A DNA stretch of 64,000 bases. Origin: Nemertoderma westbladi. Taxonomy: Eukaryota > Animalia > Xenacoelomorpha. This document shows positions 791 through 64,000 of this stretch, piece after piece (within the stretch, counting starts at the first letter, position 1; every line of letters begins with the position of its first letter). The translations under genes were made by a program, and so were the position numbers. A model generated the notes under the pieces. The model was not told where the DNA came from. It saw nothing but the letters and a program-made list of their open reading frames with translations, and ran no database searches. The DNA lies in contig JAUCBJ010001978.1 of NCBI GenBank assembly GCA_032718475.1, forward strand, positions 48,142-112,141. The letters are read 5' to 3'.

Positions 791-1821
791 GGCTTTGTTG
801 GTCGGGGTGGAACATGAGAGTAGCCTCCAACTCCAGGACTGGTACCCGTACCAGTACCAAGAACAACAGGTTTGGTAATGCTTCAACCAAATAAATTACT
901 CGCTCCATGCATGAATATTATAATATTATTATGTAACCAATTAATTTATAATAATTATAAAATTTAAGTTAACATTTCAAACCATCAATGTCATTTCTCT
1001 AATAGGGTTGGTGCGCGAAAAAATTGTTGGGCTAGAAACAATTGAATAAGGGGTAACAAGGTGCCCTGAATCGAGTCGTGGTGGGGTGTGTTTTTTGTAA
1101 AAACACGTGGATACGGTCTAAATGGCGGGTTTAAGTAAGAGCGGGAAGCCAATTTTCAAAATCGGCTGTGATTGGATGCTACATTTTTGACGTCATTACG
1201 CAGTGCTCTGATAATTTCTTATCTTGGTTTCTATGGAGAGAGATTCGAATTATCCATAATATTATGTATTTAGATAAAATTCTTAAAACAAACAATTCAG
1301 AAACACAAAATCAGTTGAATTTAAAGATATAATTTAGAATATACATGCAAAACTCGTGCAAAGGGGTGTTAACGTTCACATGTTTCGCGTATTTTGTTGA
1401 AGTTAACACCTAGTACGTATAAATATTCCTATGTTTATAATACACAACGGCTGACATGCGGTTACAGTTTGGGTTTCATTTTTTCTCGAAATTGCTGTTA
1501 TTTACCTCAACATTCACCTGGAGATTGTAAAATCTTCACCCACCCACCCCCCCCGACCCCCTCCTACCAACATGCTATTAACGTGCAACTCAAACATACC
1601 AATGCAACTAACCTCTGTGGAATATTTCTGTTTAAATTTCTGAAAATCCCTGGATGTCTAAACACATGAAAAATAAAATCATATCCCAAAATAAACCAAC
1701 ATTATCATAAAGTAAAATAAATAAAATGACATCGTATTAACTTTATTCAACGTTAAGCAATGTATAAACGGGATCATTAACTTTATTCACCATGACGCAA
1801 TGTTTATATAAACGGGATGAA

Positions 1822-4800
1822 ACCTAGCTGCAACCTCTATCGCCGCCCACTAACCCTAGCAGCAACCTCTATCGCCGCCCACTAACCCTAGCTGCAACCT
1901 CTATCGCCGCCCACTAACCCTAGCAGCAACCTCTATCGCCGCCCACTAACCCTAGCTGCAACCTCTATCGCCGCCCACTAACCCTAGCTGCAACCTCTAT
2001 CGCCGCCCACTAACCCTAGCTGCAACCTCTATCGCCGCCCACTAACCCTAGCAGCAACCTCTATCGCCGCCCACTAACCCTAGCAGCAACCTCTATCGCC
2101 GCCCACTAACCCTAGCTGCAACCTCTATCGCCGCCCACTGACACTAGCTGCAACCTCTATCGCCGTCCACTAACCCTAGCTGCAACCTCTATCGCCGCCC
2201 ACTAACCCTCAACCTCTATCGCCGCCCACTAACCCTAGCTGCAACATCTATCGCCGCCCACTAACCCTAGCTGCAACCTCTATCGCCGCCCACTAACCCT
2301 CAACCTCTATCGCCGTCCACTAACCCTCAACCTCTATCTCCGCCCACTAACCCTAGCTGCAACCTCTATCGCCGCCCACTAACCCTAGCTGCAACCTCTA
2401 TCGCCGCCCACTAACCCTAGCTGCAACCTCTATCGCCGCCCACTAACCCTAGCTGCAACCTCTATCGCCGTCCACTAACCCTAGCTGCAACCTCTATCGC
2501 CGCCCACTAACCCTCAACCTCTATCTCCACCCACTAACCCTAGCTGCAACCTCTATCGCCGCCCACTAACCCTAGCTGCAACCTCTATCGCCGCCCACTA
2601 ACCCTAGCTGCAACCTCTATCGCCGCCCACTAACCCTAGGCTGAAACCTCTATCGCCGCCCACTAACCCTAGCTGCAACCTCTATCGCCGCCCACTAACC
2701 CTAGCAGCAACCTCTATCGCCGCCCACTAACCCTAGCTGCAACCTCTATCGCCGCCCACTAACCCTCAACCTCTATCGCCGTCCACTAACCCTCAACCTC
2801 TATCTCCGCCCACTAACCCTAGCTGCAACCTCTATCGCCGCCCACTAACCCTAGCTGCAACCTCTATCGCCGCCCACTAACCCTAGCTGCAACCTCTATC
2901 GCCGCCCACTAACCCTAGCTGCAACCTCTATCGCTGCCCACTAACCCTCAACCTCTATCGCCGTCCACTAACCCTCAACCTCTATCTCCGCCCACTAACC
3001 CTAGCTGCAACCTCTATCGCCGCCCACTAACCCTAACAGCAACCTCTATCGCCGCCCACTAACCCTAGCTGCAACCTCTATCGCCGCCCACTAACCCTCA
3101 ACCTCTATCGCCGTCCACTAACCCTCAACCTCTATCTCCGCCCACTAACCCTAGCTGCAACCTCTATCGCCGCCCACTAACCCTAGCTGCAACCTCTATC
3201 GCCGCCCACTAACCCTAGCTGCAACCTCTATCGCCGCCCACTAACCCTAGCTGCAACCTCTATCGCCGCCCACTAACCCTAGCTGCAACCTCTATCGCCG
3301 CCCACTAACCCTAGCTGCAACCTCTATCGCCGCCCACTAACCCTAGCTGAAACCTCTATCGCCGTCCACTAACCCTCGACCTCTATCGCCGCCCACTAAC
3401 CCTCGACCTCTATCGCCGCCCACTAACCCTAGCTGCAACCTCTATCGCCGCCCACTAACCCTAGCAGCAACCTCTATCGCCGCCCACTAACCCTAGCTGA
3501 AACCTCTATCGCCGTCCACTAACCCTCAACCTCTATCGCCGCCCACGAACCCTAGGCAGCAACCTCTATCGCCGCCCACTAACCCTCAACCTCTATCGCC
3601 GCCCACTAACCCTAGCTGCAACCTCTATCGCCGCCCACTAACCCTCAACCTCTATCTCCGCCCACTAACCCTAGCTGCAACCTCTATCGCCGTCCACTAA
3701 CCCTAGCTGCAACCTCTATCGCCGCCCACTAACCCTAGCTGCAACCTCTATCGCCGCCCACTAACCCTAGCTGCAACCTCTATCGCCGCCCACTAACCCT
3801 AGCAGCAACCTCTATCGCCGCCCACTAACCCTAGCAGCAACCTCTATCGCCGCCCACTAACCCTCAACCTCTATCGCCGCCCACTAACCATAGCTGCAAC
3901 CTCTATCGCCGCCCACTAACCATAGCTGCAACCTCTATCGCCGCCCACTAACCCTCAACCTCTATCACCGTCCACTAACCCTAGGCTGCAACCTCTATCG
4001 CCGCCCACTAACCCTAGCTGCAACCTCTATCGCCGCCCACTAACCCTAGCAGCAACCTCTATCGCCGCCCACTAACCCTAGCAGCAACCTCTATCGCCGC
4101 CCACTAACCCTAGCTGCAACCTCTATCGCCGCCCACTAACCCTAGCAGCAACCTCTATCGCCGCCCACTAACCCTTGCTGCAACCTCTATCGCCGCCCAC
4201 TAACCCTAGGCTGCAACCTCTATCGCCGTCCACTAACCCTCAACCTCTATCGCCGTCCACTAACCCTCAACCTCTATCGCCGTCCACTAACCCTAGCAGC
4301 AACCTCTATCGCCGCCCACTAACCCTAGCTGCAACCTCTATCGCCGCCCACTAACCCTAGCTGCAACCTCTATCGCCGCCCACTAACCCTAGCTGCAACC
4401 TCTATCGCCGCCCACTAACCATAGCTGCAACCTCTATCGCCGTCCACTAACCCTCAACCTCTATCGCCGTCCACTAACCCTCAACCTCTATCGCCGCCCA
4501 CTAACCATAGCTGCAACCTATATCGCCGTCCACTAACCCTCGACCTCTATCGCCGCCCACTAACCCTAGCTGCAACCTCTATCGCCGCCCACTAACCCTC
4601 AACCTCTATCGCCGCCCACTAACCCTAGCTGCAACCTCTATCGCCGCCCACTAACCCTCAACCTCTATCTCCGCCCACTAACCCTAGCTGCAACCTCTAT
4701 CGCCGTCCACTAACCCTAGCTGCAACCTCTATCGCCGCCCACTAACCCTAGCTGCAACCTCTATCGCCGCCCACTAACCCTAGCTGCAACCTCTATCGCC

Positions 4801-7800
4801 GCCCACTAACCCTAGCAGCAACCTCTATCGCCGCCCACTAACCCTAGCAGCAACCTCTATCGCCGCCCACTAACCCTCAACCTCTATCGCCGCCCACTAA
4901 CCATAGCTGCAACCTCTATCGCCGCCCACTAACCATAGCTGCAACCTCTATCGCCGCCCACTAACCCTCAACCTCTATCACCGTCCACTAACCCTAGGCT
5001 GCAACCTCTATCGCCGCCCACTAACCCTAGCTGCAACCTCTATCGCCGCCCACTAACCCTAGCAGCAACCTCTATCGCCGCCCACTAACCCTAGCAGCAA
5101 CCTCTATCGCCGCCCACTAACCCTAGCTGCAACCTCTATCGCCGCCCACTAACCCTAGCAGCAACCTCTATCGCCGCCCACTAACCCTTGCTGCAACCTC
5201 TATCGCCGCCCACTAACCCTAGGCTGCAACCTCTATCGCCGTCCACTAACCCTCAACCTCTATCGCCGTCCACTAACCCTCAACCTCTATCGCCGTCCAC
5301 TAACCCTAGCAGCAACCTCTATCGCCGCCCACTAACCCTAGCTGCAACCTCTATCGCCGCCCACTAACCCTAGCTGCAACCTCTATCGCCGCCCACTAAC
5401 CCTAGCTGCAACCTCTATCGCCGCCCACTAACCATAGCTGCAACCTCTATCGCCGTCCACTAACCCTCAACCTCTATCGCCGTCCACTAACCCTCAACCT
5501 CTATCGCCGCCCACTAACCATAGCTGCAACCTATATCGCCGTCCACTAACCCTCGACCTCTATCGCCGCCCACTAACCCTAGCTGCAACCTCTATCGCCG
5601 CCCACTAACCCTAGCTGCAACCTCTATCGCCGCCCACTAACCCTCAACCTCTATCGCCGCCCACTAACCCTCAACCTCTATTGCCGCCCACTAACTCTAG
5701 GCTGCAACCTCTATCGCCGCCCACTAACCCTAGGCTGCAACCTCTATCGCCGCCCACTAACCCTAGCTGCAACCTCTATCGCCGCCCACTAACCCTCACC
5801 CTCTATCGCCGTCCACTAACCCTCAACCTCTATCGCCGTCCACTAACCCTCAACCTCTATCGCCGCCCACTAACCCTAGCAGCAACCTCTATCGCCGCCC
5901 ACTAACCCTAGCTGCAACCTCTATCGCCGCCCACTAACCCTCAACCTCTATCGCCGCCCACTAACCCTCAACCTCTATTGCCGCCCACTAACTCTAGGCT
6001 GCAACCTCTATCGCCGCCCACTAACCCTAGGCTGCAACCTCTATCGCCGCCCACTAACCCTAGCTGCAACCTCTATCGCCGCCCACTAACCCTCAACCTC
6101 TATCGCCGTCCACTAACCCTCAACCTCTATCGCCGCCCACTAACCATAGCTGCAACCTATATCGCCGTCCACTAACCCTCGACCTCTATCGCCGCCCACT
6201 AACCCTAGCTGCAACCTCTATCGCCGCCCACTAACCCTCAACCTCTATCGCCGCCCACTAACCCTCAACCTCTATTGCCGCCCACTAACTCTAGGCTGCA
6301 ACCTCTATCGCCGCCCACTAACCCTAGGCTGCAACCTATATCGCCGCCCACTAACCCTAGCTGCAACCTCTATCGCCGTCCACTAACCCTAGCTGCAACC
6401 TCTATCGCCACCCACTAACCATAGCTGCAACCTCTATCGCCGCCCACTAACCCTAGGCTGCAACCTATATCGCCGCCAACCAACCCTAGCTGCAACCTCT
6501 ATCGCCGTCCACTAACCCTAGCTGCAACCTCTATCGCCGTCCACTAACCCTAGCTGCAACCTCTATCGCCGTCCACTAACCCTAGCTGCAACCTCTATCG
6601 CCGCCCACTAACCCTAGCTGCAACCTCTATCGCCGCCCACTAACCCTAGCTGCAACCTCTATCGCCGTCCACTAACCCTAGCTGCAACCTCTATCGCCGC
6701 CCACTAACCCTAGCTGCAACCTCTATCGCCGTCCACTAACCCTAGCTGCAACCTCTATCGCCACCCACTAACCCTAGCTGCAACCTCTATCGCCGTCCAC
6801 TAACCCTAGCTGCAACCTCTATCGCCGTCCACTAACCCTAGCTGCAACCTCTATCGCCGTCCACTAACCCTAGCTGCAACCTCTATCGCCGTCCACTAAC
6901 CCTAGCTGCAACCTCTATCGCCGTCCACTAACCCTAGCTGCAACCTCTATCGCCGTCCACTAACCCTAGCTGCAACCTCTATCGCCGCCCACTAACCCTA
7001 GCTGCAACCTCTATCGCCGTCCACTAACCCTAGCTGCAACCTCTATCGCCACCCACTAACCATAGCTGCAACCTCTATCGCCGCCCACTAACCCTAGGCT
7101 GCAACCTATATCGCCGCCCACTAACCCTAGCTGCAACCTCTATCGCCGTCCACTAACCCTAGCTGCAACCTCTATCGCCGTCCACTAACCCTAGCTGCAA
7201 CCTCTATCGCCGCCCACTAACCCTAGCTGCAACCTCTATCGCCGCCCACTAACCATAGCTGCAACCTATATCGCCGCCCACTAACCCTCGACCTCTATCG
7301 CCGCCCACTAACCCTAGCAGCAACCTCTATCGCCGCCCACTAACCCTAGCAGCAACCTCTATCGCCGCCCACTAACCCTAGCTGCAACCTCTATCGCCGC
7401 CCACTAACCCTTGCTGCAACCTCTATCGCCGCCCACTAACCATAGCTGCAACCTCTATAGCCGCCCACTAACCCTAGGCTGCAACCTCTATCGCCGTCCA
7501 CTAACCCTAGCAGCAACCTCTATCGCCGTCCACTAACCCTAGCTGCAACCTCTATCGCCGTCCACTAACCCTAGCAGCAACCTCTATTGCCGCCCACTAA
7601 CCCTAGCTGCAACCTCTATCGCCGTCCACTAACCCTCAACCTCTATCTCCGCCCACTAACCATAGCTGCAACCTCTATCGCCGCCCACTAACCCTAGCTG
7701 CAACCTCTATCACCGCCCACTAACCCTAGCTGCAACCTCTATCGCCGCCCACTAACCCTCAACCTCTATCTCCGCCCACTAACCCTAGCTGCAACCTCTA

Positions 7801-10800
7801 TCGCCGCCCACTAACCATAGCTGCAACCTCTATCGCCGCCCACTAACCCTTGCTGCAACCTCTATCGCCGCCCACTAACCCTAGCTGCAACCTCTATCGC
7901 CGCCCACTAACCCTCAACCTCTATCGCCGCCCACTAACCCTAGCTGCAACCTCTATCGCCGCCCACTAACCCTAGCTGCAACCTCTATCGCCGTCCACTA
8001 ACCCTCAACCTCTATCGCCGTCCACTAACCCTAGCTGCAACCTCTATCGCCGCCCACTAACCCTAGCTACAACCTCTATCGCCGCCCACTAACCCTAGCT
8101 GCAACCTCTATCGCCGTCCACTAACCCTAGCTGCAACCTCTATCGCCGCCCACTAACCCTCAACCTCTATCGCCGCCCACTAACCCTAGCTGCAACCTCT
8201 ATCGCCGCCCACTAACCCTAGCTGCAACCTCTATCGCCGTCCACTAACCCTCAACCTCTATCGCCGTCCACTAACCCTAGCTGCAACCTCTATCGCCGCC
8301 CACTAACCCTAGCTACAACCTCTATCGCCGCCCACTAACCTTAGCTGCAACCTCTATCGCCGCCCACTAACCATAGCTGCAACCTCTATCGCCGCCCACT
8401 AACCCTTGCTGCAACCTCTATCCCCGCCCACTAACCCTAGCTGCAACCTCTATCGCCGCCCACTAACCCTCAACCTCTATCGCCGCCCACTAACCCTAGC
8501 TGCAACCTCTATCGCCGCCCACTAACCCTAGCTGCAACCTCTATCGCCGTCCACTAACCCTCAACCTCTATCGCCGTCCACTATCCCTAGCTGCAACCTC
8601 TATCGCCGCCCACTAACCCTAGCTACAACCTCTATCGCCGCCCACTAACCCTAGCTGCAACCTCTATCGCCGTCCACTAACCCTAGCTGCAACCTCTATC
8701 GCCGCCCATTAACCCTCAACCTCTATCGCCGCCCACTAACCCTAGCTGCAACCTCTATCGCCGCCCACTAACCCTAGCTGCAACCTCTATCGCCGTCCAC
8801 TAACCCTCAACCTCTATCGCCGTCCACTAACCCTAGCTGCAACCTCTATCGCCGCCCACTAACCCTAGCTACAACCTCTATCGCCGCCCACTAACCCTAG
8901 CTGCAACCTCTATCGCCGCCCACTAACCATAGCTGCAACCTATATCGCCGTCCACTAACCCTCAACCTCTATCGCCGCCCACTAACCCTAGCTGCAACCT
9001 CTATCGCCGCCCACTAACCCTCAACCTCTATCGCCGCCCACTAACCCTAGCTGCAACCTCTATCGCCGCCCACTAACCCTAGCTGCAACCTCTATCGCCG
9101 TCCACTAACCCTCAACCTCTATCGCCGTCCACTAACCCTAGCTGCAACCTCTATCGCCGCCCACTAACCCTAGCTACAACCTCTATCGCCGCCCACTAAC
9201 CCTAGCTGCAACCTCTATCGCCGCCCACTAACCATAGCTGCAACCTATATCGCCGTCCACTAACCCTCAACCTCTATCTCCGCCCACTAACCATAGCTGC
9301 AACCTCTATCGCCGCCCACTAACCCTAGCTGCAACCTCTATCACCTCCCACTAACCCTAGCTGCAACCTCTATCGCCGCCCACTAACCCTCAACCTCTAT
9401 CTCCGCCCACTAACCCTAGCTGCAACCTCTATCGCCGCCCACTAACCATAGCTGCAACCTCTATCGCCGCCCACTAACCCTTGCTGCAACCTCTATCGCC
9501 GCCCACTAACCCTAGCTGCAACCTCTATCGCCGCCCACTAACCCTCAACCTCTATCGCCGCCCACTAACCCTAGCAGCAACCTCTATCGCCGCCCACTAA
9601 CCCTTGCTGCAACCTCTATCGCCGCCCACTAACCATAGCTGCAACCTCTATCGCCGCCCACTAACCCTAGCTGCAACCTCTATCGCCGCCCACTAACCCT
9701 AGCTGCAACCTCTATCGCCGCCCACTAACCCTCAACCTCTATCGCCGCCCACTAACCCTAGCTGCAACGTCTATAGCCGTCCACTAACCCTAGCTGCAAC
9801 CTCTATCGCCGCCCACTAACCCTCAACCTCTATCGCCGTCCACTAACCCTCAACCTCTATCTCCGCCCACTAACCCTAGCTGCAACCTCTATCGCCGCCC
9901 ACTAACCCTAGCAGCAACCTCTATCGCCGCCCACTAACCCTAGCAGCAACCTCTATCGCCGACCACTAACCCTAGCTGCAACCTCTATCGCCGCCCACTA
10001 ACCCTAGCTGCAACCTCTATCGCCGCCCACTAACCCTAGCTGCAACCTCTATCGCCGCCCACTAACCATAGCTGCAACCTATATCGCCGTCCACTAACCC
10101 TCAACCTCTATCGCCGCCCACTAACCCTAGCTGCAACCTCTATCGCCGCCCACTAACCCTCAACCTCTATCGCCGCCCACTAACCCTAGCTGCAACCTCT
10201 ATCGCCGCCCACTAACCCTAGCTGCAACCTCTATCGCCGTCCACTAACCCTCAACCTCTATCGCCGTCCACTAACCCTAGCTGCAACCTCTATCGCCGCC
10301 CACTAACCCTAGCTACAACCTCTATCGCCGCCCACTAACCCTAGCTGCAACCTCTATCGCCGCCCACTAACCATAGCTGCAACCTATATCGCCGTCCACT
10401 AACCCTCAACCTCTATCTCCGCCCACTAACCATAGCTGCAACCTCTATCGCCGCCCACTAACCCTAGCTGCAACCTCTATCACCTCCCACTAACCCTAGC
10501 TGCAACCTCTATCGCCGCCCACTAACCCTCAACCTCTATCTCCGCCCACTAACCCTAGCTGCAACCTCTATCGCCGCCCACTAACCATAGCTGCAACCTC
10601 TATCGCCGCCCACTAACCCTTGCTGCAACCTCTATCGCCGCCCACTAACCCTAGCTGCAACCTCTATCGCCGCCCACTAACCCTCAACCTCTATCGCCGC
10701 CCACTAACCCTAGCAGCAACCTCTATCGCCGCCCACTAACCCTTGCTGCAACCTCTATCGCCGCCCACTAACCATAGCTGCAACCTCTATCGCCGCCCAC

Positions 10801-13800
10801 TAACCCTAGCTGCAACCTCTATCGCCGCCCACTAACCCTAGCTGCAACCTCTATCGCCGCCCACTAACCCTCAACCTCTATCGCCGCCCACTAACCCTAG
10901 CTGCAACGTCTATCGCCGTCCACTAACCCTAGCTGCAACCTCTATCGCCGCCCACTAACCCTCAACCTCTATCGCCGTCCACTAACCCTCAACCTCTATC
11001 TCCGCCCACTAACCCTAGCTGCAACCTCTATCGCCGCCCACTAACCCTAGCAGCAACCTCTATCGCCGACCACTAACCCTAGCTGCAACCTCTATCGCCG
11101 CCCACTAACCCTAGCTGCAACCTCTATCGCCGCCCACTAACCCTAGCTGCAACCTCTATCGCCGCCCACTAACCCTAGCTGCAACCTATATCGCCGCCCA
11201 CTAACCCTAGCTGCAACCTCTATCGCCGCCCACTAACCCTAGCAGCAACCTCTATCGCCGACCACTAACCCTAGCTGCAACCTCTATCGCCGCCCACTAA
11301 CCCTAGCTGCAACCTCTATCGCCGCCCACTAACCCTAGCTGCAACCTCTATCGCCGTCCACTAACCATAGCAGCAACCTCTATCGCCGCCCACTAACCCT
11401 AGCTGAAACCTCTATCGCCGTCCACTAACCCTCAACCTCTATCGCCGCCCACTAACCCTAGCAGCAACCTCTATCGCCGCCCACTAACCCTAGCTGCAAC
11501 CTCTATCGCCGCCCACTAACCCTAGGCTGAAACCTCTATCGCCGCCCACTAACCATAGCTGCAACCTCTATCGCCGCCCACTAACCCTCAACCTCTATCA
11601 CCGTCCACTAACCCTAGGCTGCAACCTCTATCGCCGCCCACTAACCCTAGCTGCAACCTCTATCGCCGCCCACTAACCCTAGCAGCAACCTCTATCGCCG
11701 CCCACTAACCCTAGCAGCAACCTCTATCGCCGCCCACTAACCCTAGCTGCAACCTCTATCGCCGCCCACTAACCCTAGCAGCAATCTCTATCGCCGCCCA
11801 CTAACCCTAGCAGCAACCTCTATCGCCGCCCACTAACCCTAGCTACAACCTCTATCGCCGCCCACTAACCCTAGCTGCAACCTCTATCGCCGTCCACTAA
11901 CCCTAGCTGCAACCTCTATCGCCGCCCACTAACCCTAGCTGCAACCTCTATCGCCGCCCACTAACCCTAGCTGCAACCTCTATCGCCGCCCACTAACCCT
12001 AGCTGCAACCTCTATCGCCGTCCACTAACCCTAGCTGCAACCTCTATCGCCGTCCACTAACCCTAGCAGCAACCTCTATCGCCGCCCACTAACCCTCAAC
12101 CTCTATCGCCGTCCACTAACCCTCAACCTCTATCGCCGCCCACTAACCCTAGCTGCAACCTCTATCGCCGCCCACTGACACTAGCTGCAACCTCTATCGC
12201 CGTCCACTAACCCTAGCTGCAACCTCTATCGCCGCCCACTAACCCCCAACCTCTATCGCCGCCCACTAACCCTAGCAGCAACCTCTATCGCCGCCCACTA
12301 ACCCTAGCTGCAACCTCTATTGTCTCCCACTAACCCTAGCTGCAACCTCTATCGCCGCCCACTAACCCTAGCTGCAACCTCTATCGCCGTCCACTAACCC
12401 TAGTTGCAATCTCTATCGCCGCCCACTAACCCTAGCTGCAACCTCTATCGCCGCCCACTAACCCTAGCTGCAACCTCTATCGCCGCCCACTAACCCTAGC
12501 AGCAATCTCTATCGCCGCCCACTAACCCTAGCTGCAACCTCTATCGCCGCCCACTAACCCTAGCTGCAACCTCTATCGCCGCCCACTAACCCTAGCAGCA
12601 ACCTCTATCGCCGCCCACTAACCCTAGCTGCAACCTCTATCGCCGCCCACTAACCCTAGCAGCAACCTCTATCGCCGCCCACTAACCCTAGCTGCAACCT
12701 CTATCGCCGCCCACTAACCCTAGCTGCAACCTCTATCGCCGCCCACTAACCCTAGCTGCAACCTCTATCGCCGCCCACTAACCCTAGCAGCAACCTCTAT
12801 CGCCGCCCACTAACCCTAGCTGCAACCTCTATCGCCGCCCACTAACCCTCAACCTCTATCGCCGCCCACTAACCCTAGCAGCAACCTCTATCGCCGCCCA
12901 CTAACCCTAGCTGCAACCTCTATCGCCGCCCACTAACCCTAGCTGCAACCTCTATCGCCGCCCACTAACCCTAGCAGCAACCTCTATCGCCGCCCACTAA
13001 CCCTAGCTGCAACCTCTATCGCCGCCCACTAACCCTCAACCTCTATCGCCGCCCACTAACCCTAGCTGCAACCTCTATCGCCGCCCACTAACCCTGGCTG
13101 CAACCTCTATCGCCGCCCACTAACCCTAGCAGCAACCTCTATCGCCGCCCACTAACCCTAGCTGCAACGTCTATTGCCGTCCACTAACCCTAGGCTGAAA
13201 CCTCTATCGCCGCCCACTAACCCTAGCTGCAACCTCTATCGCCGCCCACTAACCCTAGCAGCAACCTCTATCGCCGCCCACTAACCCTAGCTGCAACCTC
13301 TATCGCCGCCCACTAACCCTAGCAGCAACCTCTATCGCCGCCCACGAACCCTAGCTGCAACCTCTATCGCCGCCCACTAACCCTAGCAGCAACCTCTATC
13401 GCCGTCTACTAACCCTAGCTGCAACCTCTATCGCCGCCCACTAACCCTAGCTGCAACCTCTATCGCCGCCCACTAACCCTAGCAGCAACCTCTATCGCCG
13501 CCCACTAACCCTAGCTGCAACCTCTATCGCCGCCCACTAACCCTGGCTGCAACCTCTATCGCCGCCCACTAACCCTAGCTGCAACCTCTATCGCCGCCCA
13601 CTAACCCTAGCAGCAACCTCTATCGCCGCCCACTAACCCTAGCTGCAACCTCTATCGCCGCCCACTAACCCTAGCAGCAACCTCTATCGCCGCCCACTAA
13701 CCCTAGCAGCAACCTCTATCGCCGCCCACTAACCCTAGCTGCAACCTCTATCGCCGCCCACTAACCCTCAACCTCTATCGCCGCCCACTAACCCTCAACC

Positions 13801-16800
13801 TCTATCGCCGCCCACTAACCCTAGCAGCAACCTCTATCGCCGCGCACTAACCCTAGCTGCAACCTCTATTGCCTCCCACTAACCCTCAACCTCTATCGCC
13901 GCCCACTAACCCTAGCTGCAACCTCTATCGCCGTCCACTAACCCTCAACCTCTATCGCCGTCCACTAACCCTAGCTGCAACATCTATCGCCGCCCACTAA
14001 CCCTAGCAGCAACCTCTATCGCCGCCCACTAACCCTAGCTGCAACCTCTATCGCCGTCCACTAACCCTCAACCTCTATCGCCGCCCACTAACCCTAGCTG
14101 CAACATCTATCGCCGCCCACTAACCCTAGCAGCAACCTCTATCGCCGCCCACTAACCCTAGCTGCAACCTCTATCGCCGCCCACTAACCCTAGCTGCAAC
14201 CTCTATGGCCGCCCACTAACCCTAGCTGCAACCTCTATCGCCGCCCACTAACCCTAGCTGCAACCTCTATCGCCGCCCACTAACCCTAGCAGCAACCTCT
14301 ATCGCCGCCCACTAACCCTAGCTGCAACCTCTATCGCCGCCCACTAACCCTCAACCTCTATCGCCGCCCACTAACCCTAGCAGCAACCTCTATCGCCGCC
14401 CACTAACCCTAGCTGCAACCTCTATCGCCGTCCACTAACCCTCAACCTATATCGCCGCCCACTAACCCTAGCAGCAACCTCTATCGCCGCCCACTAACCC
14501 TAGCTGCAACCTCTATCGCCGCCCACTAACCCTGGCTGCAACCTCTATCGCCGCCCACTAACCCTAGCTGCAACCTCTATCGCCGCCCACTAACCCTAGC
14601 AGCAACCTCTATCGCCGCCCACTAACCCTAGCAGCAACCTCTATCGCCGCCCACTAACCCTAGCTGCAACCTCTATCGCCGCCCACTAACCATCAACCTC
14701 TATCGCCGCCCACTAACCCTCAACCTCTATCGCCGCCAACTAACCCTAGCTGCAACCTCTATCGCCGCCCACTAACCCTAGGCTGCAACCTCTATCGCCG
14801 CCCACTAACCCTAGCAGCAATCTCTATCGCCGCCCACTAACCCTAGCTGCAACCTCTATCGCCGTCCACTAACCCTAGCTGCAATCTCTATCGCCGCCCG
14901 CTAACCCTAGCTGCAACCTCTATCGCCGTCCACTAACCCTAGCAGCAACCTCTATCGCCGCCCACTAACCCTAGCAGCAACCTCTATCGCCGCCCACTAA
15001 CCCTAGCTGCAACCTCTATCGCCGCCCACTAACCCTAGCTGCAACCTCTATCGCCGCCCACTAACCCTAGCAGCAATCTCTATCGCCGCCCACTAACCCT
15101 AGCAGCAACCTCTATCGCCGCCCACTAACCCTAGCTACAACCTCTATCGCCGCCCACTAACCCTAGCTGCAACCTCTATCGCCGTCCACTAACCCTAGCT
15201 GCAACCTCTATCACCGCCCACTAACCCTAGCTGCAACCTCTATCGCCGCCCACTAACCCTAGCAGCAACCTCTATCGCCGCCCACTAACCCTCAACCTCT
15301 ATCGCCGACCACTAACCCTAGCTGCAACCTCTATCGCCGTCCACTAATCCTAGCAGCAACCTCTATCGCCGCCCACTAACCCTAGGCTGCAACCTCTATC
15401 GCCGCCCACTAACCCTAGCTGCAACCTCTATCGCCGCCCACTAACCCTAGCAGCAATCTCTATCGCCGCCCACTAACCCTAGCTGCAACCTCTATCGCCG
15501 CCCACTAACCCTAGCTGCAACCTCTATCGCCGCCCACTAACCCTAGCAGCAACCTCTATCGCCGTCCACTAACCCTAGGCTGCAACCTCTATCGCCGCCC
15601 ACTAACCCTAGCTGCAACCTCTATCGCCGCCCACTAACCCTAGCTGCAACCTCTATCGCCGTCCACTAACCCTAGCTGCAACCTCTATCGCCGTCCACTA
15701 ACCCTAGCAGCAACCTCTATCGCCGCCCACTAACCCTAGTAGCAACCTCTATCGCCGCCCACTAACCCTAGGCTGCAACCTCTATCGCCGCCCACTAACC
15801 CTAGCTGCAACCTCTATCGCCGCCCACTAACCCTAGCAGCAATCTCTATCGCCGCCCACTAACCCTAGCTGCAACCTCTATCGCCGCCCACTAACCCTAG
15901 CTGCAACCTCTATCGCCGCCCACTAACCCTAGCAGCAACCTCTATCGCCGTCCACTAACCCTAGGCTGCAACCTCTATCGCCGCCCACTAACCCTAGGCT
16001 GCAACCTCTATCGCCGCCCACTAACCCTAGCAGCAATCTCTATCGCCGCCCACTAACCCTAGCTGCAACCTCTATCGCCGTCCACTAACCCTAGCAGCAA
16101 CCTCTATCGCCGCCCACTAACCCTAGCAGCAACCTCTATCGCCGCCCACTAACCCTAGGCTGCAACCTCTATCGCCGCCCACTAACCCTAGCAGCAATCT
16201 CTATCGCCGTCCACTAACCCTAGCTGCAATCTCTATCGCCTCCCACTAACCCTAGCTGCAACCTCTATCGCCGCCCACTAACCCTAGGCTGCAACCTCTA
16301 TCGCCGCCCACTAACCCTAGCAGCAATCTCTATCGCCGTCCACTAACCCTAGCTGCAATCTCTATCGCCGCCCGCTAACCCTAGCTGCAACCTCTATCGC
16401 CGCCCACTAACCCTAGCAGCAACCTCTATCGCCGCCCACTAACCCTAGCTGCAACCTCTATCGCCGTCCACTAACCCTAGCTGCAACCTCTATCGCCGTC
16501 CACTAACCCTAGCAGCAACCTCTATCGCCGCCCACTAACCCTAGCAGCAACCTCTATCGCCGCCCACTAACCCTAGCTGCAACCTCTATCGCCGCCCACT
16601 AACCCTAGCTGCAACCTCTATCGCCGCCCACTAACCCTAGCAGCAATCTCTATCGCCGCCCACTAACCCTAGCAGCAACCTCTATCGCCGCCCACTAACC
16701 CTAGCTACAACCTCTATCGCCGCCCACTAACCCTAGCTGCAACCTCTATCGCCGCCCACTAACCCTCAACCTCTATCCCGCCACTAACCCTAGCTGCAAC

Positions 16801-17818
16801 CTCTATCGCCGCCCACTAACCCTAGCTGCAACCTCTATCGCCGCCCACTAACCATAGCAGCAACCTCTATCGCCGCCCACTAACCCTAGACTGCAACCTC
16901 TATCGCCGCCCACTAACCCTAGCTGCAACCTCTATCGCCGCCCACTAACCCTAGCAGCAATCTCTATCGCCGCCCACTAACCCTAGCTGCAACCTCTATC
17001 GCCGCCCACTAACCCTAGCTGCAACCTCTATCGCCGCCCACTAACCCTAGCAGCAACCTCTATCGCCGTCCACTAACCCTAGGCTGCAACCTCTATCGCC
17101 GCCCACTAACCCTAGCTGCAACCTCTATCGCCGCCCACTAACCCTAGCTGCAACCTCTATCGCCGTCCACTAACCCTAGCTGCAACCTCTATCGCCGTCC
17201 ACTAACCCTAGCTGCAACCTCTATCGCCGCCCACTAACCCTCGACCTCTATCGCCGCCCACTAACCCTAGCTGCAACCTCTATCGCCGCCCACTAACCCT
17301 AGCTGCAACCTCTATCGCCGCCCACTAACCCTAGCTGCAACCTCTATCGCCGCCCACTAACCCTCAACCTCTATCGCCGCCCACTAACCCTAGCTGCAAC
17401 CTCTATCGCCGCCCACTAACCCTAGCTGCAACCTCTATCGCCGCCCACTAACCCTCAACCTCTATCGCCGCCCACTAACCCTAGCTGCAACCTCTATCGC
17501 CGCCCACTAACCCTAGCTGCAACCTCTATCGCCGCCCACTAACCCTCAACCTCTATCGCCGTCCACTAACCCTAGCTGCAACCTCTATCGCCGCCCACTA
17601 ACCCTAGCTGCAACCTCTATCGCCGCCCACTAACCCTCAACCTCTATCGCCGCCCACTAACCTTAGCTGCAACCTCTATCGCCGCCCACTAACCCTAGGC
17701 TGCAACCTCTATCGCCGCCCACTAACCCTCAACCTCTATCGCCGCCCACTAACCTTAGCTGCAACCTCTATCGCCGCCCACTAACCCTAGGCTGCAACCT
17801 CTATCGCCGCCCACTAAC

Positions 17819-17842
<24 letters not shown>
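1822..17842. repeat. ~16-kb minisatellite, 32-bp unit CTAACCCTAGCTGCAACCTCTATCGCCGCCCA (27- and 33-bp variants), derived from an ANKRD42 exon end plus donor
   Basis: Continuous tandem units, roughly 500 by length/unit size. The last unit merges into the coding exon at 17819-17842 (minus strand GCG GCG ATA GAG GTT GCA GCT AGG|GTTAGT). Confidence 0.98.
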
Positions 17843-38457
<20,615 letters not shown>

Positions 38458-39490: not shown

Positions 39491-39778
39491 ATAATAGATT
39501 TATAGTTTGAAATTCCTATGCTTATTTTATTTTTTTCTGATAATTGAACCTTCACTTTTGATCCACTAAGAAACATATGTTGTATTGTATTCTCTTTTTT
39601 TTCCTTTTAAGAACGTATTTTATTTAATACTTTCACCCCACTGACATACAGTAAGTGTTTGTAATCTATGTTCCCCGTTTAGTAATTTCTGTCGTAAATT
39701 TAACAACATTATTGATTTATTTGACGTTTATGTATATATGTAAACGCACCTATAAGCGTAACAGTAGCATTTACGCGA

Positions 39779-41185
39779 ATTGTACCAGCTCCCAAGAAGG
39801 GCAACCTAACACTCTATGGTTCTTTTCGGGGAATCTCATTGATCTCGATTGCTGCAAAGCTATACAATAGGATTCTATTAAATCGCATCAGGGATCCCAT
39901 TGAGAGACTGCTCCGTGGAAATCAGAATGGGTTCCGTAAAGGTCATGGGACCATGGAGCCCATTTTGGCACTTAGAAGGATAATTGAAGAATTATCAAAA
40001 AAGAAAGACAGGCATCTGGCTGTTATCTTTGTTGACTTCTTCAAGGCCTTTGATTCAGTCTCTCGCTCACGTATGTTCAGCATACTTTCATTATATGGGA
40101 TTCCTGATGAAATTATTGCAGCAATCAGATCAGTATACGATGGTTCGACAACATTTGTGTCTACTGTTGACGGTGATACAGAACCATTTGAAGTATTATG
40201 GGGCGTTCTCCAAGGAGACACACTTGCACCATTCTTGTTCATTATTGTGGTTGACTATGTTCTACGCATGTCCTTAGATCATCATAATGATGATGGGGTG
40301 ATGATAACTCCACCTACTGGCTCCAGAAGTCGAGGAAATCCTGCCAAGTACCTAACTGATCTAGACTTTGCTGATGACTTAGGAGTACTCTCAGAATCAT
40401 TAGAGGGAGCCCAACGGCTCCTCAGCTCATTAGAACATTCTGCTTCTAGTGTTGGTATTTTTATTAACTCCAGAAAGACCAAAATTTTGACAGTTAACTT
40501 TGAAAGTCCTCAGCAAGTCTCTGATCGGATGAGCATAAGCTCAAAGGATGGTATGCTTGAGCATGTGGACGACTTCTGTTACCTGGGATCATGGATCCGG
40601 AAGTCAGGTAAGGACCTTCGAATACGTAAGGGAAAGGCATGTGCAGCCTTGAATAGGCTTTCCTGGATTTGGAAGTCACCGATAATTAATCGGAAACTTA
40701 AGGTCCGATTATTTAGAGCAGCAGTAGTTCCAGTACTCCTCTACGGGAGTCCATGCTGGGCTCTAACTGCTGAGGACACCAAATCTCTGGATGGCACATT
40801 TACAAGAATGCTACGCCGGGTTCATTGTGTCAAGTACAATGCACACATCTCCAACCAGACACTATATAACATTGGAGGTGTCTCATTGGTTCCCCCAAGC
40901 TTGACACTAGAAGAAAATCGCCTCCGCTTTGCAGGACATTGCTTTCGCCGTGAGGACCAGCCAGTACATAATCTTGTACTTTGGCAGCCTCATGGAGTGA
41001 ATAAGCATGGTGGACAGCCCATGACTTTCTTGAGATGCATCTTAAAGGACACTGGCCTTGAAGATGCGGATGATCTAGCAAATGTCATGGGTGATAGGGA
41101 GTTGTGGCGGTGCAATTTTGTTGATAAGCCGGCACAGCATTCTTAAAAATGCAGCTGCAATGCAGCATGCCGATCCTAGTAGTAC
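39779..41185 (+). mobile_element. 5'-truncated RTE-like non-LTR retrotransposon with an uninterrupted RT ORF (track ORF 39839-41146)
   Basis: PKKGNL..FRGISL, QNGFRKG, FVDFFKAFDSV, GVLQGDTLAP, DLDFADD, YLGSWI, RLRFAGHCFR; short (TAG)n tail. Confidence 0.93.
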
Positions 41186-42472
41186 CTTGGTGGTGTTTCC
41201 CCTTTAATTGTAATTAATGTTAATATTAAATGAGTGTTGTAATAATAATAAACTAATAAAACGTATCATCCTCCCTCCATAATTTATTCAGGGCCTACAT
41301 GTGTAACCTGAGCCTAATACCCGATAGCTATCGCTATCGGCACCAAATACTGTACTCGTAGCGTACAGTACCACTGTTACGAGAACATTATAAATTATCT
41401 AAGCATATAGGCCTACCGAAGGTTTAATTAATTTTACTACAGTATAATAATAAATATCAAAATGTTAAAGGAACTTTACTATATGAACCGATCACTTATT
41501 CTGTTGATATATTAGATTCGTAAACTAATTAACCTGAGTTGGTAAAATTAAGAACATAAAATTTACGCCTACTACATATGGGACAATTTTTTGTAAAATA
41601 ATGGTCTATTTTTTTATGTTACTATTCTTATTCATACCCTTGTCTAGTCATGGTATAGGTTTACGGTATGACAACAAACGGACAACATTTATTACAATAT
41701 AATCACATGCACTGTATGTACAGTATCAAACAATATGGACGGGCTTAAAATGATTGATGCAAGCATTGATGTAATCGCAGAATAATCTAACTAGCATAGG
41801 GTGCAGCTGAGCGCCCCCAAATGATGAAACACGGTCAATGGTTTAATTATAGGCAACAACGCCGCGAGCGAGCGGCAGAGAGAGGGGCAACAACGTTTGC
41901 AACTTCAAATAGTGGTCACCAGGAGCCAAAATTGTAAATATTAATTCCAGAACATGAATATATTTATATGCTCTGTAGTAGTTGTGAATAAGGTGACTTG
42001 ATTATATTGGTTGTCTGTCTACTGGTCTATGGCTTCTGGATACCTGCATGCATAGCTACAGTAGCTGCCTTGGTTAGGCCAGTTGCGAGATGATGGTGCT
42101 GAGTAGGGAACGCCCCCCCCCCCCCCCCCCCTCCTCTCCTAACTGACAATATTACGGACTAAAATCACACACTCTGAAGCTTTGTGGGGCGGTAATCGGT
42201 CTACAGTCAGACAGTACCTCAACTGCTCTACACACATACACTTCGTACACTGGTACAGTACCGGTACCGCACCGGCAACCTACTGACCTAATCTGTATCC
42301 AGGCATCCTCTACTACAGTACTAAACGTCTACTGGTCTAAAGCTTGCAGTACAGCAGTATTGCAGTACTGCAGTATGCAGTATCTGAGTAGGCAGTAGGC
42401 TAGTGTTGTAGCAGTGAAGTCAGGACAGCAGGAAGTGAGGAGACTTGACTTACTTCATACTTCTGTACTTAC

Positions 42473-43498: not shown

Positions 43499-43915
43499 AT
43501 GGCTGCTGGAATTAAAGGTATAATTGGTCTGGCCTTCTCAGCGGCTGTCGGCGTAACATTCCTGCTACTGGGTTGCGCACTGCCTGACTATCGGAATTAC
43601 TGGCCCCTATTCGTGCTGTTCTTCTACTTGCTGGTACCAGTGCCGCTGATTATCGCCCGACGTATCAGCTCCACCGACTGGGGTGGCGGCGGTGGGGGGT
43701 CCAGCAACGCTCTGTGGGAGACTGGATTGTTCGTTACTGCCGGTGTTGTTGTCTCCGCTTTCGGCTTACCTGTCGTTTTGGCACACATCGCTACCATTAA
43801 ATGGGGCGCCTGCGCCCTGGTTATGTCCGGCAATCTTATTGTGTTTCTTACAATTCTCGCTTACTTTCTTATATTTACTGGAGACGATGAATATGCTTTT
43901 AGTGTTTGGATATAA
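43499..43915 (+). CDS. LEPROT: Leptin receptor gene-related protein / LEPROT(L1), Vps55 family, intronless CDS
   Basis: MAAGIKGIIGLAFSAAVGVTFLLLGCALPDYRNYWPLFVLFFYLLVPVP...FVTAGVVVSAFGLPVVLAH..TIKWGACALVMSGNLIVFLTI; four hydrophobic segments. The invertebrate gene is probably co-orthologous to LEPROT and LEPROTL1. Confidence 0.93.
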   Translation: MAAGIKGIIGLAFSAAVGVTFLLLGCALPDYRNYWPLFVLFFYLLVPVPLIIARRISSTDWGGGGGGSSNALWETGLFVTAGVVVSAFGLPVVLAHIATIKWGACALVMSGNLIVFLTILAYFLIFTGDDEYAFSVWI

Positions 43916-46495: not shown

Positions 46496-46751
46496 TTAAT
46501 AAGTAATTTCTGACACTAATTACTTCTGCCTACATTCATACGCATTCATGTATTAAACAATTACGGCACCTTGCACAATCACCTCAGTGGCAGGATTTTA
46601 AGAATTTTTCGTTATCCATGAAGCTAAGGAAAATCAACAATTTTCACTAAGAAATATTTCCTTAGCTGAGAGTGAGATGGTGGTCATAGTGGGCCGTTTT
46701 ACTCATGTGAGTCGAAGATGGTTGCGGTAAGTGAATGCGGTTACTGAGTCC

Positions 46752-47274
46752 ATACTGGGCTCTAACTGCTGAGGACACCAAATCTCTGGATGGCACATTC
46801 ACAAGAATGCGTCGCCGGGTTCACTGTCAAGTAAAATGCACACATCTCCAACCAGACACTATATAACATTGGAGGTGTCTCATTGGTTCCCCCAAGCTTG
46901 ACACTAGAACGAAGCCGCCTCCGCTTTGCACGACATTGCTTTCGCCGTGAGGACCAGCCAGCGCATAATCTTGTGCTTTGGTGGCAAGAATGGTGGACAG
47001 TCCATGACTTTCTTGATACGTCGCTTAAAGGACACTGGCCTTGTAGATGTGGATAATCTGCTGAAAGTTATGGGGGATAGAGAGTTGTGCGCGGCAATTT
47101 TGTCGTTAAGTCGGCACCACTGTAACATCTGATGGTCTTTAACATTCTTAATGCACGCTGCATTGGAGCATGCTATTTGTGGATTGCATTGTGGTGGTAA
47201 TAATTATTTTTGCTAAGCTAGCATAGCATCTCATTGTGCAGCTGCTATGCAGCAGGCCGAGTATAGTAGTAGTA
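46752..47274 (+). mobile_element. RTE-like LINE 3' fragment with a longer 3' UTR
   Basis: Near-identical to 40752-41130 (ctgggctctaactgctgaggacaccaaatctctgg...); (TAG)n tail. Confidence 0.88.
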
Positions 47275-47430: not shown

Positions 47431-47721
47431 GCCAATGTGAAGAATCCCAGACTTTCTGCCGTTATATTTTACTTTGCAGTTACCCCCCATGTGAAGAATA
47501 CCAGACTTTCTGCCGTTATGTTTCACTTTGCAGTTACCCCCATGTGAAGAATACCAGACTTTCTGCCGTTATATTTCACTTTGCAGTTACCCCCACGCGA
47601 AGAATACCAGGTTTTCACCAAAAACACAGGTTACAGAAGGGCTGAATCTAACCAAAACAATAGACAAATTAGTTATATGTACTCGACCGAAAAGTGAAAT
47701 CCTGGTATTCTTCACATGGGC
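47431..47721. mobile_element. Small MITE with ~53-bp internal tandem repeats
   Basis: Terminal inverted gcc(c/a)atgtgaagaat...attcttcacatgggc, flanked by a direct repeat CAGAGACCG (47422-47430 and 47723-47731). Confidence 0.6.
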
Positions 47722-53900: not shown

Positions 53901-55016
53901 CATGTGTGTCGGTAATAAATTGTTTCATTATCAATAGTGCTATACAGCCATAGTATAAGTCGTTTATTTTATTCACTGTTCAACTTCATTCTGTCTGCCT
54001 GTTTGCTGTTTTATTATATGTGCAGTTTTATTTATACGCTTCTATGACAGCGGTGTCTCCATCCAAATAATATAATATAATATAAATATAGTTTATACAA
54101 TACAGCAATATTATGTAAATAAATAAACTGACTATGACCAATAGCAATAATGACTGATCAGCTGATAGCTGGAACCTTGATAGCCTACCTCAGTACCTGC
54201 CTACAGCATAAGGTTAAATACGTAAATAAATGACCAGTTGCAGTCAGCCAGTGCTGCAGTGTGAGTTTCCTTTATGCCTCCTGCATGGCCAGTTGTTATT
54301 GTGTTGCTGTGCTGTTGGTCTGATGAACGCATGTCTGCTGTCTCAGTCTCACTGTCTGCCTGGCAGCCTGGTGCTAGGTTCGGCTGATTTCTGCGCCAGG
54401 CAAATATGTACGCCGGGTGTGCTGGGCTGATTCTTGCTTCGGCGCCGGGTCAATTTCTGCAGCGTCGACGCCGGGAATATTTCGACGCCTGCTGCGCCGA
54501 GCGCAGCATCTCTACCATTGGCAGTGCTCCGCCGGCTACGCCGGCGTAGCACATCTCTGCGCCGACCCTTCCGGCTCATTGCCCGGCGTAGCACATTTCT
54601 GCGCCAGCTCCCGGCGCAAGTTCTAGTGCTGCGCCGAACGTGCTCGGCGTACATGTGAAACTTTTCAATAGGGTGTGTGGCGCGCATTTAGGATCCTGGC
54701 GCGAAGGAACAGGGGCGTGCGTGTGGCGCGCATTGAGGATCCTGGCGCGGAAATGGATGTCATGCTGTCATGTACAGTAGCAAAATGCACTGGCATGGCA
54801 ACATATCCAGCCACTCTCTGACTCTACTTGAAATTATACCGGTCTGCCACGCCAGTAGAGCCTATTTTTAAAAAGAGTTACCGGTAGGCCTAGGCCTTAA
54901 AATTTTTCGCTCGCTTCGCTCGCGTTTGTGTATTGTACCTGCCTACTGTACGCTCTACTCTTACTCATCATTCTAATAACCTGATAACTATTATACAGTA
55001 CCGGTAATAGGGATAT

Positions 55017-60263: not shown

Positions 60264-60900
60264 ATGTATATTCACCTGAAGCAAAATAAACAATATAACT
60301 ACTGGAGACATGGCAGCATGGGGGGAAACTCGACGCAAAACCCGCCTTGGCGAATTAATATCCCGCCTCGATGTTAAATTCTCAATTTAGCTGTTTAGGG
60401 AAAGGACAGAAGGAGCAGGTTATAGTGGCACGTTATTTTAACCAAAACAATAAACTAAACACAATAGAACAGGTTACAGTTTTATTTTTGAGAGTAATCA
60501 TCTGTTATTTGCGTCCAATTTCCCTTGGAGAGGGATGAATTTTTATTGCGTCCAGTTTCCCCCCCTATCTGAACTACTGAACTACGGAGGCCGAAGGCCG
60601 AGATTGTTATTCAAGTTTTTTTTGCTGAACAAAAACAGTGAAATTTTTAAAGGCACCATGTTCAGATGTTAGATACGTTAATTGCTTTTTTAATTAGGCC
60701 TACCGCAATGAAAGTTATTGTCTGATTGTATTATACCGTTCTGCCGGTACTGTTAATACAGTAATAATAATGGTTATATAACAAGATGATGACGAGACGA
60801 TATCTTATCGATAATTGCCGCCTGTAACGTTATCATCATGTGTTCTACAGAGGTGCTGGTTTAATCGACTTAAAGGAATTACCCGTCCGTACCGGTAATA

Positions 60901-63900: not shown

Positions 63901-64000
63901 TCCATGTCCGTAGATGTCGCGGAACCGAGTAGGAGGTTGCTAGGAGACGGTGACCGCAGAGGTTCCTTGCCTACCGCGAAGACTCCGGCCGAGGTCAGTG
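60901..64000 (+). CDS. Large ORF (>1,030 codons, open at the window end): SEC14/CRAL-TRIO domain, spectrin-like helical region, then a Ser/Pro/Thr-rich region; Dbl/Trio/puratrophin/SESTD1-type protein
   Basis: Hand translation from ataATGG (in-frame stop upstream at 60871) found no stop to 64000: MDDEGEFVKLLYPSLCTGYELLSSGAAYICGGVDIQEHPVIIFP...LQSFVPSWNLPVKYGGKLKYSPDNFIKWR. This resembles the SEC14 termini of Trio/Dbl-family GEFs. Confidence 0.8.
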   Translation, partial: MDDEGEFVKLLYPSLCTGYELLSSGAAYICGGVDIQEHPVIIFPSSHHGVLTEIPVNNLALLIGYLAYMWGPSYNAGLCLLIDQCVYDEAALEHLLPAIQVALTNFKLNFYTALILQPVCKKLRKLLSKQLSKKTQKKSKTPNYALPFPVELINDFSHLQSFVPSWNLPVKYGGKLKYSPDNFIKWRSKIHPIDLKYSEIAHLLPHYLYQIDKLKEDISGLTAAEAKIKLPQLETRYREIMKKINFPNIIDKLNVNIIELEQIDSVDTNYLSGTVFHSVTIDILRARRDKLEGLQGVAWVVWREIQTGVGRADQLQRHVEAGDKLRAWIRDQGFFYLSHRCPEATTPEEAASNREAFREGFLGTARDVIELAETWEREDSGLTRGEGEGSELGELTAKFRVEVETAEKKFDLICDFFDCLLKAKSWYYKVMEMVGEMGGLRWEGGGLRGEGGGLRGEGSGLRGEGGGLRGEGGGLRWEVGLPDPPTDAQLDTITESGIVVSNSSRRIASRVLASRCTLLKQMLLGGEPYDEELAESVTRWHEFAAAGWDLAIESTTPSLPSHKQLRRSDSLHTTSARSDLTEITSMSSESEILEPSPRPEAARKPPEGPRNVPERDDLAEILETAEKLLIELNTGPLIYRNKKRKKTRNSNNFYPKSRDKTDNFDVTNSMVTGAVHKLFGSVGTSRGDTLGAASGFGTPSRHPTSWSPSSETFSSSLSGPNNVLPSVPPFVVPSSIKKGSDLKSVDSGCHMSSESLPWLLEQEVPDYRAGGGGSTRWVAPDGCSTSRVETRRPVAGRFLLRSQDREFLDSYLRVGSGPHSDSVGQTIRRSNDMITDRGQTNRHHPVQTTRYTTNTETPKQTDLSLSGLQPVDPPRTTTDLPDYDPIERTEDYVNSIAGWPSNSQSTSREDSNKSKALEERVLSKLFSGELNDVTEDSEFTNRPTVVEQYSVNDILTYRPTDRAMSNDYVPDNPDRRGVNESSPSSADRRGFIDRYHASPHSMSVDVAEPSRRLLGDGDRRGSLPTAKTPAEVS
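62213..62336 (+). repeat. In-frame 21-bp coding minisatellite, (GGLRGEG)n, about 6 copies
   Basis: ggcgggttgagggg(g/t)gaaggg repeats preserve the frame within the 60901 ORF. Confidence 0.85.

Follow-up and report, generated by a model that had tools for sequence, protein, structure and literature searches.

Minisatellites spanning splice donors in the introns of an ANKRD42 gene from Nemertoderma westbladi

Tandem repeats that span an exon–intron boundary are known from a few human genes and from lancelets. The available part of PMC1557585 describes donor-spanning variable-number tandem repeats (VNTRs) in human F7 IVS7 (37 bp, 5–9 copies) and in the interferon-inducible gene 6-16 (25 pseudo-sites), as well as in CBS IVS13 (15–20), LMNB2 (100 bp, 10–15 copies) and PDGF intron 4 (81 bp, 16–18 copies); in F7, LMNB2 and PDGF the most upstream donor is used, and in F7 donors are chosen in the 5′-to-3′ direction. 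The lancelet ‘mirage’ minisatellites, found in Adh3, the globin genes BflGb6 and BflGb9, troponin C and PGBD5, have units of 10–160 bp with splice signals in many copies, are reported to be spliced normally and affect several loci per taxon (accessible sections of PMC3087553 and PMC3902484); their generating mechanism is called unclear in the former. Two further models bear on such repeats, each as set out in the available portions of its sources: the Rogers model, in which introns are gained by tandem genomic duplication of AGGT exon segments (PMC3443670, PMC2812944), and that of Haber and Louis, in which repeats are born between short flanking repeats (PMC6947457). The accessible text of PMC10078293 concerns repeats that alter splicing, not their placement.

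Here we describe an ANKRD42 gene whose donors are associated with such arrays. The arrangement itself has these precedents in lancelets and human genes; what stands out here is scale and density. We consider, with moderate confidence, that the minisatellites arose from the gene’s own exon-end DNA, as short local duplications that grew by unequal exchange and were tolerated through use of the first donor, the outcome being intron inflation without function.

Within the window (the whole 64,000-nt stretch analysed), the gene was modelled on the minus strand from 38457 to 17819 as ten coding exons, which form one open frame with GT..AG introns (Table 1). Pfam Ank matches fall in exons 2, 3, 5, 6 and 7. 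The identification as ANKRD42 made in the first-pass annotation was borne out. Exon 3 as a query returned 264 proteins, and all those with a specific name among the 120 matches listed are ANKRD42; the joined protein is 49–53% identical to its 25 best homologues over about 450 residues, and the alignment of the ankyrin region to these is gap-free at the exon joints. The layout, N-terminal ankyrin repeats and then a coiled-coil region at the C-terminal end, is colinear with that of named ANKRD42 proteins, and no single one of the homologues compared is much closer than the others. Exons 9 and 10, each used alone as a homologue query, gave no matches. Since the homologues are about 45 residues longer than the modelled protein, at least one further exon probably lies past the left window edge. 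A guessed exon 11 at 1613–1657 was dropped, having neither homology nor run cover. Five of the ten donors (37917, 37092, 29414, 18379 and 17819, minus strand) start with GTTAG, not GTRAG. A possible donor of a 5′ untranslated exon lies at 42472 (minus strand), followed by degenerate donor-like and 8–16-bp repeats (42345–42441).

Table 1 Coding exons, tandem arrays and duplications of the ANKRD42 locus (TRF, Tandem Repeats Finder).
Feature	Position	Strand	Basis and remarks
Coding exon 1	38448..38457	-	ATG + 7 nt; open spliced frame; too short for homology test
Exon 2, ankyrin repeats	37917..38087	-	Open spliced frame, Pfam, homologue alignment
Exon 3	37092..37217	-	Open frame, Pfam; top matches named ANKRD42
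Exon 4	33375..33457	-	Open frame, homologue alignment; both flanking introns at positions unshared with orthologues examined
Exon 5	29832..29988	-	Open frame, Pfam, homologue alignment
Exon 6	29414..29614	-	Open frame; both boundaries common to many animals
Exon 7	26837..27019	-	Open frame, Pfam, orthologue matches
Exon 8	25481..25618	-	Exon tail is first unit of array 2; open frame, run X3, homologue alignment
Exon 9, coiled-coil region	18379..18562	-	Open frame; joined to exon 10 in run X3
Exon 10	17819..17957	-	Ends at predicted phase-0 donor AGG|GTTAGT, by homology, not RNA-confirmed
Array 1, minisatellite	1823..17842	-	TRF 32 bp x514.8; unit = 24 nt exon-10 tail + 8 nt
Array 2, donor-spanning minisatellite	18934..25510	-	TRF 35 bp x183.1; unit = 30 nt exon-8 tail + 5 nt intron
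Donor-3 duplication	37038..37106	-	TRF 29 bp x2.4; unit = 15 nt exon + 14 nt intron; 97% matches
Donor-6 degenerate triplication	29329..29414	-	TRF 29333-29414, 31 bp x2.4; units 31-36 nt; begins 1 nt before GT
Degenerate duplication across donor 7	26803..26889	-	Period 75; partial exon-7 copy 22 nt into intron 7
AG-free array	33465..33657	-	TRF 14 bp x13.8; stops 7 nt before acceptor 4
Pyrimidine-rich, nearly AG-free array	30000..30459	-	TRF 20 bp x23; stops 11 nt before acceptor 5
18-bp x145 intronic array	34334..37019	-	TRF; begins 72 nt past donor 3; AG-free; not splice-site copy
315-bp x4.2 array	27546..28877	.	TRF; mid intron 6, off junction; counter-example
Two-copy duplication	29124-29178		Off junction
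Two-copy 40-bp duplication	1736..1818	-	Directly after array 1; AATAAA twice

The six arrays reported in the first-pass annotation were recovered by TRF, and the units of the donor arrays are indeed copied from local junction DNA. Its count of four donor-side arrays held for donors 3, 8 and 10, whose units span the junction; the array at 29330–29413 is nearly all intron, and a fifth, at donor 7, had been missed. A boundary-spanning tandem unit is thus present at donors 3, 7, 8 and 10 (the last by homology) and at donor 6 by 1 nt only, the donor-6 unit comprising 1 nt of exon and 35 nt of intron at 22% GC. Two arrays had been assigned to the acceptor side as copies of the acceptor. Neither spans a boundary: they end 11 and 7 nt short, hold 0.7 and 0.0 AG per 100 nt (5.8–20.7 in the donor arrays) and leave none of the nine acceptors covered, and they are therefore copies of upstream intron sequence rather than of a splice site. 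Nor are arrays confined to junctions: the 18-bp and 315-bp arrays and the two two-copy duplications, left out of the first-pass annotation, lie off them. An origin of the 18-bp array from the donor-3 duplication was rejected, because equally good scores came from 58 of 892 control windows and from 89 of 1000 shuffles. The units of seven arrays have only short motifs in common. Elsewhere in the window, a 53-bp x3.3 array at 47435–47610 (plus strand) has a unit resembling a pyrimidine tract plus CAG, with no exon found there, and a GC-richer ORF-like region at 60860–64000, in which Pfam matched none of three ORFs tested, holds a G-rich array (21 bp x6.6).

The two giant arrays have the most exon-rich units, at 50–58% GC against about 29–42% in nearby unique kilobase bins. 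Array 1 (16 kb, about 510 copies, 58% GC) is G-rich on the RNA strand, with a G-skew of 0.60, and contains higher-order blocks of 1013 and 1139 bp. Array 2 (6.6 kb) makes up 95% of intron 8, leaving 371 unique nt; its G-skew is −0.03 and it has a higher-order block of 1503 bp. The exact higher-order spacings of 1013, 1139, 1503 and 560 bp point to block-wise amplification. Downstream copies retain the splice signal in both arrays: 467 AGG|GTTAGT are kept in about 506 units of array 1, and array 2 has 111 CAG|GTAAC and 147 AG|GTAAC. Splicing from a later donor would bring in a stop in array 1, array 2 and the donor-3 pair, and in the last of these at once. By eye, short repeats flank the donor-3 unit (10 of 11 nt) and the donor-8 unit (6 of 8 nt, including AAA).

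Such retention could be read as selection keeping the donor stacks, the extra U1 sites protecting a long intron, tuning splicing or sending part of the RNA to decay via stops or retention. Besides the 467 intact motifs, the low variation at donor positions (0–8% per position in both arrays, except 23% at −3 of array 2) agrees with this, as does the abundance of array-1 units in the RNA-like run X3 described below. However, many non-donor unit positions are equally invariant, as recent homogenisation predicts, and the decoy donors show neither stronger decay nor clearly better conservation than the rest of the unit. The arrays share no sequence with any orthologous locus, and the tunicate-like loci L007 and L008 have no duplication in the gene. 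We thus regard selection as very unlikely, and the ANKRD42 arrays as likely to be a harmless expansion of repeats, not a device that serves splicing.

Five of the six listed sequencing runs were examined, as short-read-type contigs from at most two samples. Run X3, like the other listed runs, is not recorded as RNA, yet we take it as such because its cover is limited to exons, here 9 and 10, and because these two are connected over a 421-nt intron with GT..AG ends. The exon-9 contig extends 125 letters further; the 30 of these that are shown have a single exact match in the window, at 25484 in the exon-8 tail, and are at least one letter off every later array-2 copy. In run X3, therefore, exon 8 is spliced to exon 9 via the first of about 180 array-2 donors, a result that concerns one of five donor duplications in one run and turns on one diagnostic letter among the 30 shown. 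As to the RNA check proposed in the first-pass annotation, this RNA-like run supports the exon 8–9 and 9–10 junctions but does not confirm donor 10. There, the X3 contig departs from exon 10 at 17845, which is not a GT and lies 26 nt short of the predicted donor, and the 16 letters at the exit are absent from the window at up to three mismatches. A second X3 branch, at 18426 in exon 9, is of low depth and non-canonical, its letters likewise absent at up to three mismatches. These branches may stem from a chimera, from assembler pruning or from another allele.

Summed depth in X3, which is neither copy number nor expression level, is 9,024–10,109 for array-1 units and 163.7 for exon 10; the ratio resembles that in run X1, where array-1 units sum to 1,507–1,920 against flanks of 31.3 and 18.1. 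Given the early exit from exon 10 and the abundant array-1 units in X3, array 1 may stay in the RNA to some extent and may not be cleanly spliced out. In X1, the flank past array 1 (1216–1852) has a depth of 18.1 versus 31.3 on the array’s other side, as if single-haplotype. At 1000–1245 lies a short interspersed element that is present in very many copies, with summed depth up to 89,000 in X1.

Whether array 1 lies in an intron was judged from the homologues. As an alternative, array 1 could form a 3′ UTR that stops at the two AATAAA copies of 1736–1818; X3 has no cover of 1243–1803 and is uninformative for or against this. The intron was kept because the homologues have about 45 extra residues and an intron at the end of exon 10. 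A phase-0 intron follows the EKLE motif by 24 residues in L001, 29 in L007 and L008 and 28 in primates, and the predicted donor 10 lies 26 residues past the motif; this ancestral intron position supports the junction placed there in the first-pass annotation.

It is barely credible that the long arrays are assembly artefacts. The evidence on this comes from contigs, with no reads spanning an array, and the DNA runs X1 and X2 may be the window’s own source. Against an artefact, both flanks of array 1 enter its first unit without mismatch (17821–18960 in X1; 1216–1852 in X1 and X2), and the arrays contain 55 distinct unit variants as well as kilobase blocks. Summed array depth, to be read as a rough sign of many copies and not as a copy number, is 5,300 in X2 (against 18.4) and reaches 1,920 in X1 (against 18.1).

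The excess of duplications at donors was then assessed against chance. A k-mer scan of the window at k = 12 gave 20 local duplications, ten inside the gene and ten upstream of its coding exons; five of the ten donors and none of the nine acceptors fall within a duplication. Binomial p values for the donors, which apply to one gene in a window picked for showing the pattern and are no proof of a genome-wide bias, range from 5e-5 (in-gene background, k = 12, no slack) to 7e-4 (longer period limit), with 0.0016 and 0.0005 at k = 11 and k = 14, where four of ten donors are hit. Acceptors lie within 12 nt of a duplication in two of nine cases (p 0.10–0.25, not significant in-gene). We also scattered the ten seeds randomly over the collapsed gene, with any that were wholly exonic or covered an acceptor discarded, in three versions of 20,000 trials. 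This placement null gave a mean of 0.32–0.74 donors, with P(5 or more) at most 1e-4 and P(4 or more) at most 0.0018. The suggestion that donors hold more arrays than uniform placement gives is thereby upheld, and the excess is real within ANKRD42, for donors only. Donor-containing arrays account for 22.7 of the 37.1 kb of intronic DNA in the window, nearly all of it from arrays 1 and 2. A genome-wide test of donor enrichment was not found in the literature searched, which takes in few subscription journals.

A metagenome scan identified 21 orthologous loci, 13 of them at 67–71% identity to exon 7. Introns were modelled in L001, L008, L009 and L013, leaving out L003 and L005; 24 of 26 intron rows were kept, a 30-nt ‘intron’ in L001 and the donor of the first L009 row being dropped. 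Introns 5, 6, 7, 9 and 10 lie at positions common to orthologues. The boundaries of exon 6 recur among the homologues, where 28 of 61 short genomic ORFs end at residue 250 and 13 isoforms skip residues 183/184–249/250. For introns 3, 4 and 8 the positions are residues 102, 130 and 356, unlike those in the orthologues (97, 137, 342 and 375). Intron 2 is 2 nt off the shared position, and an intron at 291 (L009, L013) is absent here. Together, these differences suggest a high intron turnover in this lineage.

The unshared positions bear on a link, drawn in the first-pass annotation, between the arrays and the duplication of AG|GT as a route of intron gain. On the Rogers model, the introns would themselves stem from tandemly duplicated AG|GT exon segments, and the arrays would be the remains of that event. 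The likeness lies in tandem AG|GT copies at exon edges and in the three introns, 3, 4 and 8, at positions absent from the orthologues modelled; moreover, of the 16 nt that separate the present position from the shared one, 15 are covered by the exon part of the donor-3 unit, and CAG|GTA stands at both ends of intron 8. The model nevertheless predicts an exonic duplicated segment whose first copy provides the donor and whose last copy provides the acceptor. In ANKRD42 the unit joins the exon end to the intron start, with no next-exon start, and the last copy provides no acceptor. The arrays end within the intron (after array 2, 371 unique nt remain in intron 8), and units end at least 371 nt before the acceptor. 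Three of the five duplicated donors, those of introns 6, 7 and 10, belong to old introns at shared positions. The proposed link is not supported by these comparisons, and we give an origin by intron birth very little credence.

A process restricted to this lineage, as was also suggested, does not fit the wider record. Lancelets have several such arrays per taxon, according to the available parts of PMC3087553 and PMC3902484, and L001, an orthologue from another animal, carries in its counterpart of intron 10 an unrelated 21-bp x5 array (6243–6347) that straddles the donor and is the sole duplication inside that gene. The L001 array shows that the pattern is not private to this lineage, though it is much denser here: across the four orthologous loci modelled, a duplication is present at one of 24 donors (that of L001). 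No array sequence common to any orthologous locus was found. In L013, another ANKRD42 orthologue, a 41-bp x6 intronic array (3485–3734) ends about 50 nt before an acceptor. Head-to-head with ANKRD42 in the window, at 43499–43915 (plus strand), lies an intronless 138-aa ORF of the Vps55/LEPROT family (Pfam PF04133, E 1e-37), for which a protein-cluster look-up gave no name. Non-LTR retrotransposon ORFs with RVT_1 occupy 55011–57668 (plus strand, 885 aa) and 39725–41146 (plus strand, 473 aa), and related-looking fragments were seen by eye at 1–900, 30600–31800 and 46700–47200.

The donor excess could reflect a bias at birth, in which a transcription- or splicing-coupled lesion (polymerase pausing, an R-loop or a nick at the 5′ splice site) would seed duplications at donors, in more than one lineage; this takes up the process proposed in the first-pass annotation, limited to donors. 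In its favour are the five of ten donors hit, with 2 to about 510 copies, above all three placement nulls; young two-copy cases that also fall on donors (37038–37106); the independent L001 array; the G-skew on the RNA strand in array 1 and in two small donor arrays (0.41–1.0); and the mirage mechanism being called unclear. Set against this, the case comes from a single gene chosen for showing the pattern, the duplication rate in the four orthologous loci is low, and half of the 20 duplication clusters lie upstream of the coding exons, so that tandem duplications arise elsewhere too. The G-skew is absent from array 2 and reaches 0.65 in the 18-bp array, which is off the junctions; a common R-loop or G-quadruplex signature across the arrays is thus not consistent (0.60, −0.03, 0.65). 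On balance, we consider a birth bias rather unlikely. Its strongest form is more doubtful still: a donor mutational hot spot in animals, tied to transcription or the spliceosome, that in this lineage has struck half of one gene’s donors, enlarged two of its introns (to 7 and over 17 kb), swamped donor 10, thereby leaving the array in the RNA, and perhaps relocated introns 3, 4 and 8.

We therefore return to local duplication and tolerated growth. Repeats would be born where short flanking repeats allow slippage or repair between them, in the manner of Haber and Louis, as the flanks at donors 3 and 8 suggest, and would grow both by single-unit steps and by kilobase blocks. A splicing filter may then act on them. 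The first AG downstream of the branch point is used as the acceptor, so copies spanning an acceptor, which add upstream AGs, would be purged, while copies spanning a donor fall into the intron and would be spared. Such a filter explains the asymmetry between donors and acceptors, but not the excess over intron interiors: the placement null, although filtered in this way, remains far below five donors. A further step may be that arrays anchored on a conserved, GC-rich exon end survive longer and grow more, which we hold, with some confidence, to be a likelier addition than a birth bias at donors; the donor-6 array, with its low GC and single exon base, does not fit the anchoring argument. The result would be passive intron inflation of the kind seen in lancelet mirages and human F7 IVS7, without a function of its own.

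With these arrays, the case grows for boundary-spanning minisatellites as a general way in which animal introns become large. Should a birth bias at donors prove true, splicing would be tied to local mutation, intron growth and intron relocation. The closest match to the ANKRD42 arrays is the lancelet mirages, which are likewise tandem copies of exon–intron boundaries with splice signals. They differ in that mirages also include acceptor boundaries, whereas the arrays here span donors only, and in scale, with 3–6 units in BflGb6 compared with about 180 and 510 copies (6.6 and 16 kb) in ANKRD42. As in the human VNTRs, the first unit lies across the exon–intron junction, identical pseudo-donors follow, and the upstream-most site is used, as seen in intron 8. 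The human genes, however, each have one array of at most about 25 copies, whereas five donors of one gene are affected here, with 20-fold more copies. With about 180 and 510 copies against 5–25 in the human cases, ANKRD42 thus provides an extreme natural test of the upstream-most-donor rule.
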